Positions 6,282 through 37,967 of a stretch of 38,853 nucleotides of DNA are shown here, one piece after another; positions within the stretch are counted from its first letter, which is position 1, and each line of letters begins with the position of its first letter. A model generated the notes under the pieces. It was not told the origin of the DNA, made no database searches, and saw nothing but the letters and a program-made list of their open reading frames with translations. The DNA is from a virus. The DNA lies in UHGV virus genome UHGV-0046264; one strand, given 5' to 3'. The translations under genes were made by a program, and so were the position numbers.

Positions 6282-6722
6282 AATTATCTCCATTTTTACA
6301 AATGAATTTTGTTGATGCGGTGCCTGGTGCCTCCAGGTGACTGCAACCAGTTAACAATTACAGTCGGCTTTCCCACCCAAACCAATAAGGACTAACATGA
6401 CTTTTAACTGTGCCACGTGCGCTTAGCCGCATTCACCGCATCACAAAATTCACTTTAAAAAGGGCGGACATCAGCCGAACTTCAAGAAAAAAACTGATGC
6501 CGCCAGGACTACACACAGCAATGTCGTTATTTACAACCGGAGGCGCACTCCCACCATTTAAATTTAACAGACAAGACCGACTCTTTATGGATATCGGAAA
6601 TGCGCCTTCGTGTTGTGCCCGGTTTTATTTCACCACCTCCGGGCTTCGGTGGTCTCGGCTATACCCCTACAGCGAGAGCTTGTGTTAACATTTCAATACC
6701 CTTACAGTTGAGAGTTATTGAT

Positions 6723-12571: not shown

Positions 12572-13766
<1,195 letters not shown>

Positions 13767-13770
13767 CTAA
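13767..13770. repeat. IS5 target site duplication CTAA (right copy)
   Basis: Direct repeat of 12568-12571. Confidence 0.8.
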
Positions 13771-13774
13771 ATAA

Positions 13775-13793
13775 CCAGCCCTTATGGGGCTGG
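13775..13793. terminator. Stem-loop CCAGCCC-TTATG-GGGCTGG between convergent genes (putative bidirectional terminator)
   Basis: 7-bp GC-rich stem just downstream of the KilA-N gene stop and, before the IS5 insertion, downstream of the 27-aa ORF. Confidence 0.5.
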
Positions 13794-13801
13794 CTAATCA
13801 T

Positions 13802-14575
13802 TTAGAACTGTTCATTGCCATCGAGGTTAGGTAGCATAATTTTTTCAATCAAGGCGAGAGCCTTTTTGTCCCGGTCAGCGAAGTATTTCGGGGCATATTG
13901 CGGCAACCAAATATTGTTAAAATGTTCTTTGAAATCTGCTAAATATTCATTTGGGTACAGCCTTGCAGGGTATACGCGACCATCGGGATATTCATGGTCA
14001 TAGGTAGGGAATGTTTTGGGTTCTACGTTTCTATTATCTCTTAACCATTGTGAAAATACTCTTCCTTGTGAAATGTCAGGAACCATTTTTTCTGGGAGTG
14101 TGTACCCTGCTTGTTCAAGAGGTGCAACCAAGTTGAATGTCAGTTCATTAAGAATAGAAAAGTGCGTGTGAGGAATTCTACTACGATTAACCATGTACCG
14201 TTTTAAATGTACAGGCATTTCTGCTGTAGTTCTTTCCCCTGACATCCATTCACGAACCCATCTTGAAACCTGGACTGCAAATTTGGGCGATAGCCACTGC
14301 GCTAGATTAATAGCGATGTCAGGATGCACCCATGTCCCTTGGTTTTCAGGTCTTCCACCTTTAAATGATTGAATTAACTCCGATATGGGAATTCCCATAT
14401 CGCGTGATAATTCGTCAAAAAACTCTTGAGTAGTTTTGAGTCTAGTGTAATCAGAGAGCAGTTTGCCCGCAGTTCTACACATTGATGTGGCGTTTATGTA
14501 ACCATCTTTGGCACGTAAATGTATTATTTCGCCGTCAATTTCACGAGAAATCAAAGATAATTGAAAGGATGTCAT
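13802..14575 (-). CDS. KilA-N domain protein with uncharacterised C-terminal domain, 257 aa
   Basis: N-terminal ~110 aa fit the KilA-N pattern (YINATSMCRTAGK...GTWVHPDIAINLAQWLSPKFAVQVSRWV); C-terminal ~150 aa not recognised. Confidence 0.75.
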   Translation of the reverse strand: MTSFQLSLISREIDGEIIHLRAKDGYINATSMCRTAGKLLSDYTRLKTTQEFFDELSRDMGIPISELIQSFKGGRPENQGTWVHPDIAINLAQWLSPKFAVQVSRWVREWMSGERTTAEMPVHLKRYMVNRSRIPHTHFSILNELTFNLVAPLEQAGYTLPEKMVPDISQGRVFSQWLRDNRNVEPKTFPTYDHEYPDGRVYPARLYPNEYLADFKEHFNNIWLPQYAPKYFADRDKKALALIEKIMLPNLDGNEQF

Positions 14576-15097
14576 TGAAAATTCCTCAAGTTGGAGAGTT
14601 CTGGAACATTAAGGCGAGGTGGCAGTAATGCACCATCTGTAATCTTTTGATACTGACGTAATCGGACCTGATGTGCAACGCCTTGCAAGTATGTAACTCA
14701 TTGAAAACGATCATTTTTATCTATTGACATCAAATGGCAAACTGTCATTGTGCGGCTATGGCAAGTGGCAAATGCTTATAAATCATATGGATATAAATAG
14801 TACAGAAAGAGTTGTTTTCTCTAGGATATGAGTATACGCCCAATGCTGATTGGTTGAATTTTGTTCTTGTTTTAAAGGGTAAGAGTTTAAAGTGTTGGCA
14901 GTGATGTATTGGATAGTTAGAATTGCTGTGGGTGCTTGAGGCTATCTGCCTCGGGCATGAACACCAAAGGCAGATAGAGAAAAGCCCCAGTTAACATTAC
15001 GCGTCCTGCAAGACGCTTAACATTAATCTGAGGCCATATCTATGCGACACATAGAGATTAGCCTCTTACGGACCGAAAGGTCAAGGAGAAGCAGGCT

Positions 15098-15223
15098 ATG
15101 AAGCAGCAAAAGGCGATGTTAATCGCCCTGATCGTCATCTGTTTAACCGTCATAGTGACGGCACTGGTAACGAGGAAAGACCTCTGCGAGGTACGAATCC
15201 GAACTGGCAGACGGAGGCTCTGA
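15098..15223 (+). CDS. Hok/Gef-family type I toxin homologue, 41 aa as encoded (C-terminus shorter and divergent)
   Basis: MKQQKAMLIALIVICLTVIVTALVTRKDLCEVRIRTG matches the Hok/Gef/RelF transmembrane core, then RRRL-stop; AAGGAG ribosome binding site 9 nt upstream; structured leader with a 10-bp stem at 14933-14968. Confidence 0.7.
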   Translation: MKQQKAMLIALIVICLTVIVTALVTRKDLCEVRIRTGRRRL

Positions 15224-15305
15224 TTCGTAGACTACTAATCTGAGTAAAAGACCCAGCGGGGAAAGAACCACGCCGGGACTAGTTAATAAGATATTTATAG
15301 CGTGG

Positions 15306-15647
15306 CTATTCTTTTTTTGCGGTATAGACTTTTTCGCCTGAGAAGTCTGGAGCTACCCAAAAGTTAATATTAAACTGAGCATCATCGCTTAGTTCAACAC
15401 GGTGCCAGTATTGTGGTGGGCTTGTTGCAAAAGCGCCAGCATTAATGACTACTTTTATCTCCGGTTCAGTAGCATTCTCATCAGCAAAACCATAATATGT
15501 TACAGTACCTTCCATCACGCATAACTGTCCAAAAACACCTGCTGCTGTATTATGATGTGTTAATAACGCTGAAGGTACGTTCTCTTTTGTGAAGAACGGA
15601 GTTGAGCGTTTGATTACCCAGTCTTTAGGAATTCTCTTGTGTGTCAT
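15306..15647 (-). CDS. YeaR-like DUF1971 protein (TehB N-terminal domain-like), 113 aa
   Basis: Pattern RSTPFF...YYGFADE..EP...FATSPPQYWHRVE...FNINFWVAP resembles YeaR/DUF1971 as I recall it; GGAGGTGGTT ribosome binding site before the internal ATG. Confidence 0.55.
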   Translation of the reverse strand: MTHKRIPKDWVIKRSTPFFTKENVPSALLTHHNTAAGVFGQLCVMEGTVTYYGFADENATEPEIKVVINAGAFATSPPQYWHRVELSDDAQFNINFWVAPDFSGEKVYTAKKE

Positions 15648-16514
15648 AACCACCTCCCATAAAACATGCATTATAAATGCACCTTTTTGAGGGTTATGTC
15701 AAGCTGTTATGAAACACATAATTGATATGTTGATTAGAGGAGAAGATAGAATCAATATGGTTGTTTTTCGTATAACTATTTGTTTTACTTTTAGTTTGTG
15801 CATTCTGTGTGTTAGGAATAACTTATTAAAGTTTAACTAAAAAATCTCGATATAGTCCGCATAGATTACTGTTACTGAATCTTATTGTGTGCATTAGTTG
15901 TGTTCTGAAATTTCAATTTAATTACTTATGATATATTTTTAACGATAAATGTTTTCCGGGTGAAAGACAGTGGGGGATGAGATAAGCAATATATCATTAA
16001 TCTTGATTATTTCCAAGATGCCTTTACTGTGCATATAAATAAATCATATACGCATCAAATAATGTAAAGGCATCCTTTTAGATATATCTTATCAAATGTT
16101 AATGATTTGAGTGGGAAACATGATTCCAGAAACTAATCATGCGGCTACTTTATAAAAATAATGCCCATATAAAACAGCCAGCGAAAAGGATTACGGATAA
16201 AAAAGGAGCGAGATGTGCATAGTTGTTATTTTCCATGTTTAACCACCTTAAATAATTGATGATGACGGGATGTGCATCTGTAATGCTTTTGTTGAAATGT
16301 TATGATAAAAAAGAACTTTTTCATAACATTAAAATGTAATTTATCTAATCGTTTTTAATAATAAGTGTTGTATTTCTATCCTTGTATCAGCTATTTGATA
16401 TGTAGTGTTTGTTCATGTTATGTGGAGCTTTACACCATAGCCAGTTTATTTATACTTTATTCGTCAGCCTGAACAACTGGCATCTGCTGCACTGCGCCAT
16501 CGAGAGATTGAGAA

Positions 16515-17114
16515 ATGGCGCATATACAACTGGTCAAACAAACCTCTTCTGGACTACTTCTCCCGGCGACGCCGGAGAGTTGCGATTTTTTGCATCAAAT
16601 CAAAATAGGCGAGTGGATACACGCAGACTTTAAGCGTGTGCGTAACTACGCATTCCACAAGCGTTTTTTCAAACTCCTGCAACTGGGATTCGATTACTGG
16701 ACTCCGGTCGGTGGGGCGATCACGCCTCGCGAACGAAAGCTGGTTTCAGGATTCGTTGATTACCTATGTGAATCAGTAGGCCGGGAACATACGCCAGCTC
16801 TGAGCGAAGCCGCAGAGCAATATCTGAATACAGTTGCGACACGCAGAACCCGGGATACGGCATTGCTAAAGTCGTTTGAGGCTTTCCGCGAGTGGGTAAC
16901 CATTCAGGCCGGATTTTACACCGAGCATCTTTATCCTGATGGTAGCCATGGGCGTCGGGCGAAATCCATCGCTTTTGCGAATATGGACGAAACCGAGTTT
17001 CAGCAGGTTTATAAATCTGTTCTGAATGTGCTGTGGAACTGGATTCTGTTCCGTAAATTTTCCTCTCCGGAACAAGTCGAAAATGTGACCGCGCAGCTGC
17101 TGGAGTTTGCGTAA
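16515..17114 (+). CDS. DUF1367-family lambdoid protein (YbcN-like), 199 aa
   Basis: Position and size typical of the nin-region gene preceding DUF1364 and Q in lambdoid prophages; assigned by recollection of the family. Confidence 0.55.
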   Translation: MAHIQLVKQTSSGLLLPATPESCDFLHQIKIGEWIHADFKRVRNYAFHKRFFKLLQLGFDYWTPVGGAITPRERKLVSGFVDYLCESVGREHTPALSEAAEQYLNTVATRRTRDTALLKSFEAFREWVTIQAGFYTEHLYPDGSHGRRAKSIAFANMDETEFQQVYKSVLNVLWNWILFRKFSSPEQVENVTAQLLEFA

Positions 17115-34733: not shown

Positions 34734-37700
34734 ATGGCAGAGCAAACCTCGCGTCTCGCAATAATTATTGATAGCACTGGAGCAAAAAATAATGCTGACA
34801 ATCTGACCTCCTCATTAGTCAAAATGACGCAGGCCGGGGAAACTGCTGCAAATAGCGCAGGGAAAGTGACTAAGGCAACAGAAGATGAGAAGAACGCGCT
34901 CGCAAAATTAAAAGCAGCTATTGATCCAGTTGGTGCCGCAATTGATACTGTCGGTCGACGCTATTCTGAATTAAAGAAATTTTTCGATAAAGGGCTTATT
35001 GATAAAGAAGAATATGAATTTCTTGTCCGTAAACTTAATGAAACCACAGAGGAATTGAGCGGGGTTGCGCAAGCGCAGAGAGAAGCCGAGAAGGCCGGAA
35101 AACTTGCTGCCGCCCAGCAGGAAGCGCAGACTCAGGCCTTTCAAAGAATGCTGGACAAGATCGACCCTCTGGCTGCGGCGCTAAGAAATCTTGAACAACA
35201 GCAGGATGAACTTAATGCTGCGTTTGCATCCGGGAAAATAAATGGTTCTCAGTTTGAGAATTATAGCCGAAAAATACAGGAAACACGGCGAGAGCTTACC
35301 GGAGAGGCTCAGGCAGAGCGAGAAGCAGCAAAAGCGCATGATGAACAGGTTGCTGCTTTGCAACGTCTGATTGCTCAACTTGACCCTGTCGGAACTGCTT
35401 TTAATCGTCTGGTAGAACAACAGAAACAGCTCAATGAAGCAAAAGCTAAGGGGATGCTCTCTCCTGAAATGTATGAGGAACTTTCTGGAAAACTTCGTGC
35501 TATGCGGAGTGAGCTTGAGGTTACTCAATCTCAATTAAGCAAAACCGGAATGTCGGCAAAACAAACGGCTTTTGCTATGCGCATGTTGCCTGCACAAATG
35601 ACGGATATTGTTGTTGGGTTGTCCACTGGTCAGTCGCCTTTTATGGTGTTAATGCAGCAGGGCGGCCAGCTAAAAGATATGTTCGGTGGGATTGGCCCGG
35701 CGATCAAAGGTGTTGGTTCTTATGTGCTGGGATTAATTAATCCTTTTACCCTGGCCGCAGCAGCCGTTGGCGTCTTAGGGCTGGCTTACTATAAAGGCTC
35801 TCAGGAGCAGGACGAATTTAATAAGTCTCTTATTCTTACCGGAAATCAGTTGGGGACAACCAGCGGGCAATTGGCCGATATAGTTCAACGTGCCGGGAAT
35901 GCGGCTGATTCGACAACTGGCGCTGCGGCGGCAGTATTAAACCAGCTTGTGCGTTCGGGAAAGGTAGCGAGCAGTTCGCTGGAGCAAGTGACGACAGCGA
36001 TAGTAAAAACGAGCGAAGTAACAGGAATATCAACCGAACAACTGGTTAATGACTTCAATGAAATTGCAAAGGATCCTGTCAGTGCCATATCAAAACTTAA
36101 TGATCAGTACCATTTTCTGACAATTGCGACTTATAACCAGATTAAGGCGCTACAGGATGAAGGGAACCAGCAGGAGGCCGCCCGCATTGCGACAGAAGCA
36201 TACTCATCCTCAATGATCCAGCGCACCAACCAGATTAAAGAAAATCTTGGTTATCTTGAGACTGCATGGAAAGCTGTCGCAGACTCCGCAAAATGGGCAT
36301 GGGATTCCATGCTGGATATTGGCCGTGAGGCCTCCCTTGATCAAAAAATCTCAGATGTTCTCCGTCAAATTGATGAAATAGAAAAAAATACCCGACCCGG
36401 AGTTTTCGGGTTAGGTGGCATTGGAGATGGCGGAGCTCAAAATAAAAGGCTGGCACGATTAAAGCAGCAATTGGGCGTACTTCAAGCAGAAAAAATTGCT
36501 CAGGACGTACTAAATTCATCAATAAATGATTACAACAAGCGACAACAGGAAGGAATTGAACTCAGACAGAGAGCAGATGCCTTTTCAAAACAATATCAGA
36601 CCCGGGAGCAGCAGAGAGCTAGTGAACTTGCAAAACTGGAAAAACTAAAGAGTCAGTATTCAAAGGAAGAATATAATAATCTTATCGCTCAAATAAATGA
36701 GCGTTATAAAGATCCAAAGCAACCAAAGGCGAAAGGTTATTCGGATGATGCTGCCCAACGAATGATTGATCATCTGAATCAACAGAATGCGTTACTAAGT
36801 TCACAAACTGAATTAACCGTTAAATTAAGTTCCTCTGAACAGGAACTGGTTAAGTGGCGTCAGCAGATTGCCGACCTGGAGTCACGACCGTCATCGAAAT
36901 TAACCAAGGATCAGAAATCGCTTCTCTTACACCGGGAAGAAATAACCGCGTTGATGGAGAAAAATGTTGCGATTGAAAAAAATAACAGGCTAATCAAGGA
37001 ATCCGCCGAAATAGCTGCATGGCGTGATTCATTGCAGGCTTCGATTGATAATCGTCAACAGGGGTATGATATTCAGATTGCTGGTTATGGGGTTGGCGAT
37101 AAAAATCAGCAACGCCAGCAGGAATTACTGCGGATTGAACGTGAATATAACAATCAGCGTCTGCAACTTGAACGTGACTATGCAGATAAATCCCGTGGGA
37201 TGTCAAATCATGTTTTTCAGGAGAAAATGCAGGCTCTGAATGATGCTCTGGAACGAGAAAAAGAAATTGTCAGACAGAAAAACGAGCAGCTCGATATTCA
37301 GGCAGGAGACTGGGTTAGTGGTGCCTCCCAGGGATTCAATAACTGGCTGGATGACACTAAGGATATCAGTGAGCAGATAAAATCAACCACGACTCAGATG
37401 TTTGATGGAATGACCGATGCGCTGGGTGATTTTGTCACGACAGGCAAAGCAAATTTTCGTTCTTTCGCTACTTCCGTGATTTCGGATCTTAGTCGAATAG
37501 CATTAAAGGCTTCAATTACTGGGATTTTCGACAGCATTAGTAACAGTTCTTCTGGGGGGATTTTAGGAACTATCGGGAGTGCTATTAGTAAATTTATTCC
37601 GAATGCAAAGGGCGGTGTTTATGAGTCTCCGTCATTGAACACGTATTCGAACGGTATTTATGATTCCCCGCAATTTTTTGCTTTTGCAAGAGGGGCTGGT

Positions 37701-37967
37701 GTTTTTGGTGAGGCTGGTCCGGAAGCCATTATGCCATTAACACGAACTTCCGATGGTTCTCTTGGTGTCAGAGCTGTTAATAGTAAAAGTGGTAATGGAG
37801 GCGGAGATATTACCTATGCCCCTGTATACCAAATCACTATTCAAAATGACGGCCAGAATGGAGAGATTGGCCCTCAGGCAATAAAAGCACTTATGGGGAT
37901 GGTTGATCAGCGGGTGCAGGGCAATCTGTTAAATATGCGACGTGATGGGGGAATGTTAAGTGGCTAA
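34734..37967 (+). CDS. Tail tape measure protein, 1077 aa
   Basis: Very long coiled-coil-rich ORF with three ~70-aa tandem repeats near the N-terminus, central hydrophobic segments, and a lambda H-like C-terminal region; follows the chaperone pair. Confidence 0.9.

Follow-up and report, generated by a model that had tools for sequence, protein, structure and literature searches.

The question raised by this locus is what an AT-rich interval without long open reading frames (ORFs) contributes to a prophage. The interval (15672-16514) belongs to the virus genome UHGV-0046264, of which the whole stretch of 38,853 nt was analyzed (called the window in the following). The window represents a Rac-like lambdoid prophage of E. 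coli, and the interval separates a YeaR-like gene on the minus strand from a nin-like block on the plus strand, which starts with a DUF1367 gene. An initial annotation had described the interval as AT-rich and ORF-poor, and had proposed an H-NS-silenced regulatory region, a small RNA locus, or the residue of deleted nin genes.

The anomaly is real. The GC content was 0.28-0.35 over positions 15600-16500 and about 0.45-0.55 in the flanks, and no complete ORF of at least 60 amino acids (aa) was found within 15672-16514. The general nature of the interval, i.e., regulatory, had been guessed correctly; the wrong mini-ORF had been chosen, and the two best-supported features had been missed. Comparisons of the sequence with its relatives indicate that the interval is probably a mosaic junction of three independent expression units, and not one element. 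All three are of known kinds, i.e., an NsrR promoter, a small membrane-peptide gene, and a structured mRNA leader; no earlier description of the 28-aa peptide family or of the leader motif seems to exist. The proposal of a regulatory region was thus right in substance, as the interval carries two or three promoters, an NsrR operator, and the structured leader.

A structured mRNA leader precedes the DUF1367 gene

The three genes downstream of the interval were identified with PHROGs and Pfam as NinB/Orf-like, HNH/YbcO nuclease, and Q-like antiterminator, and therefore the label "nin-like block" is apt. Three features were found at the right end of the interval, the last of which overlaps the first of these genes:

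16429..16456, plus strand: sigma-70 promoter TTTACA-16-TATACT, the top-ranking promoter-like site of the scan (10 of 12 consensus positions)
16463..16481, plus strand: hairpin 1 (HP1), hairpin at the 5'-end of the transcript, GUCAG-CCUGAACAA-CUGGC (covariation, RNAalifold)
16493..16522, plus strand: hairpin 2 (HP2), UGCGCCAU paired with AUGGCGCA (RNAalifold, single-sequence minimum free energy)

Transcription is expected to start around G16463. The promoter hexamers were invariant, and the spacer between them varied. In other genera the -10 element was always located 4-7 nt before HP1, often together with TTGACN at a distance of 17-18 nt or with an extended TGn motif, and at some of these loci the leader promoter directly followed an intrinsic terminator. 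An IHF-like site (TATCAGCTATTTG, 16385-16397) was also considered and was dropped, as it was not conserved in class 2.

The leader was analyzed with an alignment of 36 distinct sequences upstream of DUF1367 from about 15 genera, including Escherichia, Salmonella, Citrobacter, Klebsiella, Enterobacter, Leclercia, Kluyvera, Silvania, Siccibacter, Atlantibacter, Pluralibacter, Pantoea, and Serratia. The HP1 loop, YUGAACA, was near-invariant, and four of the five pairs of the stem covaried (pair counts GC:17/AU:14; UA:10/CG:9/UG:8/AU:5; CG:26/AU:4/UA:2; GC:18/AU:14/GU:4). Over the whole leader, double changes were found for eight pairs, and 62 compensatory cells were counted versus 22.7 expected; none of 500 column shuffles reached the observed score. 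When the register was slid as a control, the paired share fell from 85% to 22-39%. Both hairpins were returned by RNAalifold as well as by single-sequence minimum free energy folding.

HP1 is followed by AUCUGC, and HP2 begins eleven nt after HP1. HP2 pairs (U)GCGCCA with UGGCGC(A) in a GC-rich stem of 7-8 bp. Its 3'-arm contains the start codon of the DUF1367 gene (16515-16517), and the loop contains GGAGA and holds the Shine-Dalgarno (SD) sequence, GAGAG. Compensatory changes were also seen in HP2, namely CG to UA in five sequences and GC to AU in one (locus L089, where codon 2 becomes Val).

Several observations weigh against the leader as a functional structure. The predicted fold is no more stable than that of shuffled sequence (z = -0.3), and the case for the leader therefore rests on the comparison between sequences. 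The 3'-arm of HP2 belongs to a coding region and would tend to be conserved for that reason alone, and a partner for the HP1 loop was not found in the window. Further candidates around HP1 were discarded. The sequence TGTTCA (16410-16415), which is complementary to the HP1 loop, was not conserved. A second HP1-like hairpin (AGTTCCT-CTGAAC-AGGAACT, about 36827-36846, plus strand) lies inside a tail gene of 1077 aa (34734-37967) and was taken as chance. Likenesses of the HP1 loop (CUGAA-C-A) to the tRNA-Phe loop and of HP1 to boxA were left as unsupported analogies. Rfam 15 contained no match to the leader, neither at E<=1 over 14500-17000 nor at the gathering score over the whole window, and the HP1 sequence motif was present in none of the papers searched.

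HP2 resembles translational operators that sequester a start codon, since its AUG is placed in a GC-rich stem of 7-8 bp with the SD sequence in the loop, a classical layout for preventing initiation. Unlike such operators, the prophage leader is portable and makes unrelated proteins begin with Met-Ala-His/Gln (see below), and no ligand, protein, temperature dependence, or alternative fold was identified for HP2.

HP1 could instead be an antitermination signal, i.e., a nut-like boxB (or a put-like element), through which an N-type protein or the RNA itself renders the polymerase resistant to terminators and thus lets it reach Q; it would then not belong to a translational gate. In lambda, N is required at tR2 and the later terminators, and HP1 occupies the corresponding position. 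Like boxB of lambda nutR/nutL and like HK022 put, it is a cis-acting, promoter-proximal hairpin of a lambdoid early or delayed-early transcript, upstream of the genes leading to Q, and it combines a covarying stem with a conserved, purine-rich loop (GAACA is similar to lambda GAAAA/GAAGA). However, the YUGAACA loop comprises 9 nt in the covariation register and 7 nt in some lineages, and is not a GNRA-like pentaloop closed by U-A. No boxA-like sequence follows HP1, and the transcript is expected to start at HP1. The covariance model (see below) and a hairpin scan detected a single copy in the prophage and none near the early promoters. HP1 is positioned where the nin/Q operon starts, and not behind pL or pR. 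In addition, it is coupled to HP2, which clearly involves a start codon. Because of the loop size, the missing boxA, and the single copy, HP1 fails the tests for a lambda-type nut site, and we consider an antitermination signal unlikely.

The leader in other prophages and a possible role of Rho

A covariance model that was built from the leader alignment found one copy in the window (62 bits). It also detected a copy in the Qin prophage of E. coli K-12, between rem and ydfU (39 bits, E 2e-9). The Qin leader together with an intact ORF of 92 aa (MARNAKYYNSDNS...) spans positions 6307-6643 of locus L245 (NC_000913.3) on the minus strand, corresponding to about 1,644,306-1,644,642 of the genome. 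The leader itself occupies about 1,644,575-1,644,642 of this strand. The ORF is unannotated in RefSeq; PHROG 1212 and a gene of 66 aa that stands separately in other phages were the matches to its C-terminal two-thirds.

A pattern scan of IMG/VR revealed that the first gene behind the leader is variable. It encodes DUF1367, a protein of 90-92 aa, ORFs of 26-36 aa, or proteins of about 130 aa that are similar to the N-terminus of LexA. The genes after the variable first gene are nin-type genes, followed by Q. The leader with AUGGCGCA thus precedes unrelated genes, all of which begin with MA(H/Q). The first genes share Met-Ala-His/Gln because HP2 dictates these codons.

The short and the LexA-like first genes were seen at several IMG/VR loci. 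At L250, L298, L294, L331, and others the leader is followed by an ORF of 26-36 aa that is very variable beyond MAQ (e.g., MAQDQFKQSLILTLTNASDFLFAASRGAL), and then by genes for NinB, a RusA-like protein, DUF968, and Q; this short ORF could be a leader peptide. At L259, L312, and L342 the first gene encodes a protein of about 130 aa that has a LexA-like DNA-binding region at its N-terminus and lacks a protease domain.

The Qin copy connects the leader with published data. In a microarray study of K-12, the ydfU transcript rose strongly in Rho and NusG mutants and the rem transcript did not, and the terminator upstream of ydfU was ranked among the strongest Rho-dependent ones (PMC9160355). The rise of ydfU but not of rem places a zone of Rho-dependent termination in the interval that holds the Qin leader. 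The rem-ydfU interval contains a copy of the same leader as the window. It differs in its first ORF, which in K-12 is the unannotated 92-aa gene and not DUF1367. The likeness is also limited because PMC9160355 did not map the terminator to the leader. Furthermore, the excess of C over G downstream of the leader, a rut-like bias, was clear in the K-12 Qin copy (+12 points) and weak in the window (+4 to +6), a point against the mechanism proposed below. Sensitivity to Rho is known from the literature for ydfU of K-12 only.

A mechanism can be proposed on this basis. The sigma-70 promoter would give rise to a transcript that begins with HP1, followed by HP2, in which the start codon of the gene opening the NinB-like/YbcO/Q operon would be locked. 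With the AUG buried in the GC-rich stem of HP2, initiation would be poor and the first ORF would stay untranslated in the lysogen. The naked transcript would be terminated, probably by Rho, and Q would not be made in the lysogen. The gate might be opened by a conserved trans-acting factor that reads the HP1 loop, or by ribosomes or antiterminated polymerase arriving from upstream after induction. The near-invariance of the loop implies a conserved reader. Tentatively, HP1 and HP2 may form an undescribed, portable riboregulator that is widespread in Enterobacterales prophages, which gates nin/Q, and hence the commitment to late gene expression, via HP2 and Rho, is released by a host or phage factor at the HP1 loop, and lies beside a new family of 28-aa membrane peptides. 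This full reading is possible, with considerably less confidence than is placed in the mosaic structure of the interval.

A small hydrophobic ORF on the minus strand

The second feature that had been missed is a short ORF in the middle of the interval, together with its upstream region:

16150..16236 including the stop codon, minus strand: unannotated 28-aa hydrophobic ORF MENNNYAHLAPFLSVILFAGCFIWALFL
16243..16249, minus strand: SD sequence AAGGTGG of the 28-aa ORF, 6 nt before the ATG
16296..16330, minus strand: inverted-repeat hairpin, 5'-proximal in the putative mRNA of the small ORF (stem conservation, RNAalifold)
16333..16361, minus strand: candidate promoter of the small ORF, with -35 TTATTA (16361..16356), a 17-nt spacer, and -10 TACATT (16338..16333)

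Loci neighbouring DUF1367 were used as an unbiased sample, and the IMG/VR pattern scan as an enlarged one. In the former, 51 loci carried the ORF in 11 DNA versions, all of them 87 nt long, with variable sites distributed 5:7:11 over the three codon positions. The IMG/VR scan brought the total to 172 instances with 18 DNA and 14 peptide versions; again all were 87 nt long, and no indel or internal stop codon occurred. Here, the variable sites were distributed 6:8:17, and the ratio of nonsynonymous to synonymous polymorphism (pN/pS) was 0.13-0.56. A permutation test was restricted to the 20 codons free of the search pattern, and in 1.3-12% of the trials as few replacements with an open frame were obtained (P 0.013-0.12). 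The replacements were hydrophobic for hydrophobic, and residues 10-28 formed an unbroken hydrophobic stretch in all 14 versions. The complement of the SD sequence, CCACCTT, was invariant in the DUF1367-linked classes.

Several observations count against a gene. The statistical support is moderate, as the P values above show; the SD sequence is degraded to AAAGTGA in the large L125 class; and the ORF was found only in Escherichia/Shigella and not beside DUF1367 in 39 loci of other species. No exact copy of the peptide was present among 15 billion predicted proteins, nothing meaningful was found in Pfam, NCBIfam, or PHROGs, and it was absent from the papers searched. Weak matches, i.e., to the signal region of the lipoprotein Lp6.6, to Sec20, and to an Rz-like spanin, reflect hydrophobicity only. 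A lipoprotein was also rejected, because the near-lipobox FAGC of the window is FVLC, FVFC, or FACC in other versions.

The conserved 87 nt and the upstream hairpin could alternatively be a minus-strand non-coding RNA or a DNA site with an accidentally open frame. Random placement of the observed substitutions left the frame open in 53-62% of the trials, and the restriction to one genus and the weakened SD sequence of one class would fit this explanation. However, it accounts poorly for the excess of third-position changes, the low pN/pS, and the retained hydrophobicity, as well as for the fact that the 172 copies were free of indels and had constant start and stop positions, while indels occurred in the flanks. 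It is a less probable explanation. The comparative evidence, moderate in strength, makes 16236..16150 a probable gene for a small membrane protein. The peptide would consist of a polar head of 9 residues and a single hydrophobic helix of 19 residues, and would be located in the inner membrane.

The region upstream of the ORF is also conserved. The initial annotation had noted an inverted repeat (TGTTATGA-N15-TCATAACA, 16298-16328), which is indeed present and extends to arms of 14 nt (16296-16309 and 16317-16330) with 93% complementarity. Such a repeat is less common than expected by chance, as after dinucleotide shuffling only 10 of 300 sequences reached a perfect arm of 10 nt and 3 of 300 reached 13 matches with one mismatch. 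The repeat is located 60 nt upstream of the 28-aa ORF on the same strand. Its outer stem of 8 bp was kept in all 20 distinct versions, and two pairs of this stem varied; they are G-U when read on the minus strand, and the plus strand would have A-C mismatches in their place. The interior of the hairpin differed among three to four classes and was still self-complementary. RNAalifold independently predicted the minus-strand hairpin; the formal covariation was weak (27/500). The hairpin is A/U-rich and has no U tract, and the fold of the 5' untranslated region (5'-UTR) of the small ORF had a z value of -2.2.

The candidate promoter lies in two invariant blocks, and the predicted transcription start is the first base of the hairpin. 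Locus L233 retains no more than the block that extends from the ORF to CTTATTATT, so that the conserved unit ends about 6 nt upstream of the -35 element; the unit is therefore bounded, and TTATTA-17-TACATT is left as the only candidate promoter. As a point against it, only 7 of the 12 consensus positions match, and the promoter scan did not report the site; because of the low number of matches this is a promoter that we infer. It would be a weak minus-strand promoter of a unit from about 16361 to 16150, the mRNA of which would open with the inverted-repeat hairpin, with the SD sequence and the 28-codon ORF about 60 nt further on.

The small peptide is similar to known small peptides of E. coli, i.e., the type I toxins Ibs, ShoB, Ldr, and Hok as well as inner-membrane proteins, in that it has 28 aa with one predicted transmembrane helix, an SD sequence of its own, a structured 5'-UTR, and a prophage location, and has been missed by annotation. 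A type I toxin-antitoxin system, in which a membrane toxin is controlled by an antisense RNA, would be in accordance with the shortness and hydrophobicity of the unannotated peptide, the structured 5'-UTR of about 90 nt, in which the window version might form an anti-SD pairing, the vicinity of hok/sok in most prophages, and an orientation that opposes phage early transcription. However, no antisense RNA was found; neither a promoter nor a terminator for such an RNA is conserved on the plus strand over the ORF or the UTR, and without a conserved antisense promoter the assignment fails on a defining feature. The anti-SD pairing is not conserved between classes, and no repeat complementary to a divergent transcript is kept between them; this includes the direct repeat D6 (CGAGATGTGCAT/CGGGATGTGCAT), which was dropped for the same reason. 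The peptide has no sequence similarity to the toxin families, there was no match to an antitoxin in Rfam, and the peptide is known only from Escherichia/Shigella prophages. A type I system is thus unlikely, and a toxin-like or exclusion-type function of the small membrane protein is a guess.

The interval has a two-part history

Parts of the interval were matched by 1041 of 5426 complete E. coli genomes. Megablast found the whole interval in 463 genomes, and about 370 further genomes shared only positions 478-843 of the query, i.e., 16149-16514 of the window, with 76-78% identity. O157-type prophages shared only 16466-16514. To the left of 16149, the 370 genomes and the phage vB_EcoS-683R6 carry the IteA/IteS anti-phage system, and most IMG/VR relatives carry the 3'-end of hok with a terminator (compare K-12 hokD). 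The homology with divergent prophages begins exactly at the stop codon of the 28-aa ORF, beside at least three unrelated cargoes. As the right half is kept beside unrelated cargoes, the left half is cargo and the right half is phage backbone.

A cargo hotspot lies between the DUF977 gene and the small-ORF/leader module (12718-16148 of the window; 554-3947 of L003/L004; L012-type loci). In the window it contains KilA-N, hok/sok, and the YeaR-like gene, with IS5 at 12718-13734. In other Rac-like prophages it contains IteA/IteS, and in most IMG/VR relatives hok alone. Each cargo ends with a plus-strand terminator abutting the stop codon of the 28-aa ORF. At one IMG/VR locus (L220) the small-ORF unit is separated from the plus-strand promoter by the insertion of an IS3-family element, about 300 nt to the right of the ORF, and the leader is removed.

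The promoter of the YeaR-like gene contains a putative NsrR operator

At the left end, the minus-strand YeaR-like gene starts at 15647 in RefSeq, preceded by the SD sequence GGAGGTGG, and this is most likely the true start; the non-coding stretch thus begins at 15648. The product is 44% identical to YeaR of K-12 and matches DUF1971. Two features were found directly upstream:

15663..15685, no strand assigned: NsrR-type operator, 11-1-11 inverted repeat, AAGGTGCATTTATAATGCATGTT in gene orientation
15670..15675, minus strand: candidate -10 element of the YeaR-like gene (TATAAT), which falls within the NsrR site and precedes the ATG (15647) by 22 nt

The operator was compared with the ytfE site, which serves as the consensus AAGATGCATTTNAAATGCATCTT and is given in Table 4 of PMC5320621 together with the yeaR, ygbA, and hcp sites. 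The site at 15663-15685 (3 mismatches) was the sole match with up to 3 mismatches in the 38.8-kb window, with 0.01 expected by chance. It is retained in relatives (the version of L077 is AACATGCATTAAAAATGCATCTT). The NsrR site of K-12 yeaR (AAATGGTATTTAAAATGCAAATT) has the same location, and TAAAAT is found at the position within the K-12 box that is equivalent to the -10 element. The sequence thus shows two features of an NsrR regulon promoter, namely the 23-bp 11-1-11 repeat and its overlap with the core promoter.

Both systems have a DUF1971/YeaR homologue and a 23-bp NsrR box over an A/T-rich -10 element just upstream of the gene. The prophage box is even closer to the ytfE, ygbA, and hcp sites than the box of K-12 yeaR is. 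In contrast to K-12 yeaR-yoaG, the prophage gene is a moron without yoaG downstream, its leader is much shorter (about 16 nt), and no recognisable NarL/NarP site was identified at its promoter. A perfect TTGACA (15702..15697, minus strand) is invariant in relatives and lies 21 bp upstream of the -10 element, which is too far for a standard -35 element; the lack of a properly spaced -35 element weighs against this promoter. The 60 bp at 15700-15760 are the most conserved part of the left half. They may hold activator sites, none of which were identified.

The region from 15648 to about 16148 most likely carries the NsrR-repressed promoter of a YeaR-like (DUF1971) moron, judging from its similarity to the chromosomal system. 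The gene would be repressed by NsrR of the host and, in the manner of the chromosomal yeaR-yoaG, induced by nitric oxide or nitrosative stress.

A direct repeat of 16 nt with 81% identity was seen at the initiation regions of the YeaR-like gene (15647-15662, TAACCACCTCCCATAA) and the 28-aa ORF (16240-16255, TAACCACCTTAAATAA); it is probably just SD similarity.

The spacer and the plus-strand mini-ORF

The remaining spacer (about 15700-16148, some 450 bp, AT-rich) was found in 465 genomes and was always unannotated. No supported coding or RNA feature was found in it. Most often 57 bp of the left half are missing, and about 307 of the 465 genomes carry a form of about 393 bp. Two features are relevant here:

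15947..16003, no strand assigned: 57-bp segment, dispensable spacer (alignment gap in L077 and L087)
15757..15840, plus strand: 27-aa mini-ORF of the initial annotation, not supported as coding (alignment of relatives)

A perfect inverted repeat of 11 nt (GATGCCTTTAC...GTAAAGGCATC, 16017-16074) with a 36-nt spacer was also seen, and is partly kept in relatives.

The mini-ORF had been placed at about 15767-15850 and described as hydrophobic, with a ribosome binding site. It exists, and so does the SD-like site GAGGAGAAG; the correct position is 15757-15840, and a coding function is unsupported. In favour of a real peptide, the purine-rich site (15737-15745) is located 11 nt upstream of the start, and the surrounding 60 bp are invariant in five relatives. 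However, the invariant block is upstream of the ORF and not within it. In L073 and L066, which are about 93-94% identical, the stop codon TAA is changed to CAA and the frame is extended by 9 codons, and among the relatives 5 nonsynonymous changes were counted versus 2 synonymous ones. The searches of family libraries revealed neither a family match nor homologues. Because of the lost stop codon and the 5:2 ratio, the mini-ORF is not regarded as coding, and a real peptide is very improbable. The candidate peptide gene is instead on the opposite strand, 400 bp away.

A decayed nin gene had also been proposed. The DNA searches did not reveal any relative in which DNA of the interval is a gene, and the right half is an intact conserved module. 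As no relatives of the left half were found in other contexts and none were annotated, a residue of deleted nin genes is without support. The idea of a small RNA locus fared no better. Rfam at E<=1 over 14500-17000 returned sok alone, which is outside the interval, and at the gathering score over the whole window only RalA and sok. The scan for intrinsic terminators (GC-rich hairpin and U tract) found none in 15672-16514, no promoter-plus-terminator unit of a free-standing small RNA was present, and the conserved structures are the 5'-ends of mRNAs.

It has to be considered whether the whole interval is inert, i.e., AT-rich filler acquired horizontally and bound or silenced by H-NS, with a conservation that reflects recent common descent. 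The GC content of 28-35% is in line with H-NS-silenced DNA, and H-NS binding of the spacer is plausible from its composition. No annotation inside the interval was present in the RefSeq records listed among the 1041 matching genomes (in one phage record a 43-aa frame, 15709-15840, is the sole annotation), and the left half tolerates the 57-bp deletion and its spacer is without a supported feature. However, the right half is 76-78% identical beside unrelated cargoes with a sharp boundary at a stop codon, its conservation is patchy with kept hexamers and varying spacers, and the HP1 stems covary across genera. In addition, H-NS binding is compatible with promoters. Inert filler is thus an improbable explanation for the interval as a whole, and the mosaic of three units is preferred.

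Genomic context

In identical DNA in RefSeq the order of the flanking genes is ydaU, ydaV, DUF1627, DUF977, IS5, a minus-strand KilA-N gene, hok/sok, and a minus-strand "TehB family" (DUF1971/YeaR-like) gene, followed by the interval and by DUF1367, DUF1364/YbcO, DUF1133, and lysis genes. The small RNA RalA is located at 1608-1786 (Rfam). The DUF1367 gene (16515-17111) falls into PHROG 319, "NinB/Orf homologous recombination mediator" (E 1.8e-68), a match that likely gives DUF1367 a function as NinB/Orf-like recombination mediator; the literature mentioning DUF1367 was uninformative. A shorter start of this gene is annotated in ON470614.

One further ORF of 74 aa (16409..16633, plus strand) starts in the interval and overlaps the start of DUF1367 in another frame. 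It is not kept in relatives, although a similar but shifted ORF is present in L004, and it is probably spurious.

Significance

Taken together, about one fifth of the complete E. coli genomes have this "empty" spacer, in which we find an unannotated candidate gene as well as an RNA structure that is strongly supported by sequence comparison; neither of them is included in Pfam, NCBIfam, PHROGs, or Rfam. The boundaries of the modules are sharp and delimit an insertion slot, in which sister prophages carry hok/sok or the IteA/IteS anti-phage system. In the window, judging from the NsrR box, a cargo gene of the phage appears to be connected to the nitric oxide response of the host. The leader is widespread, occupies a decisive position in prophage control, and marks the start of a Q-ending operon in many prophages of E. 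coli, Salmonella, Citrobacter, Klebsiella, Enterobacter, Kluyvera, Pantoea, and Serratia. If it is a gate, it would provide a mechanism for keeping Q, and hence lysis, off in these prophages, and it would explain the awakening of prophages upon the loss of Rho.

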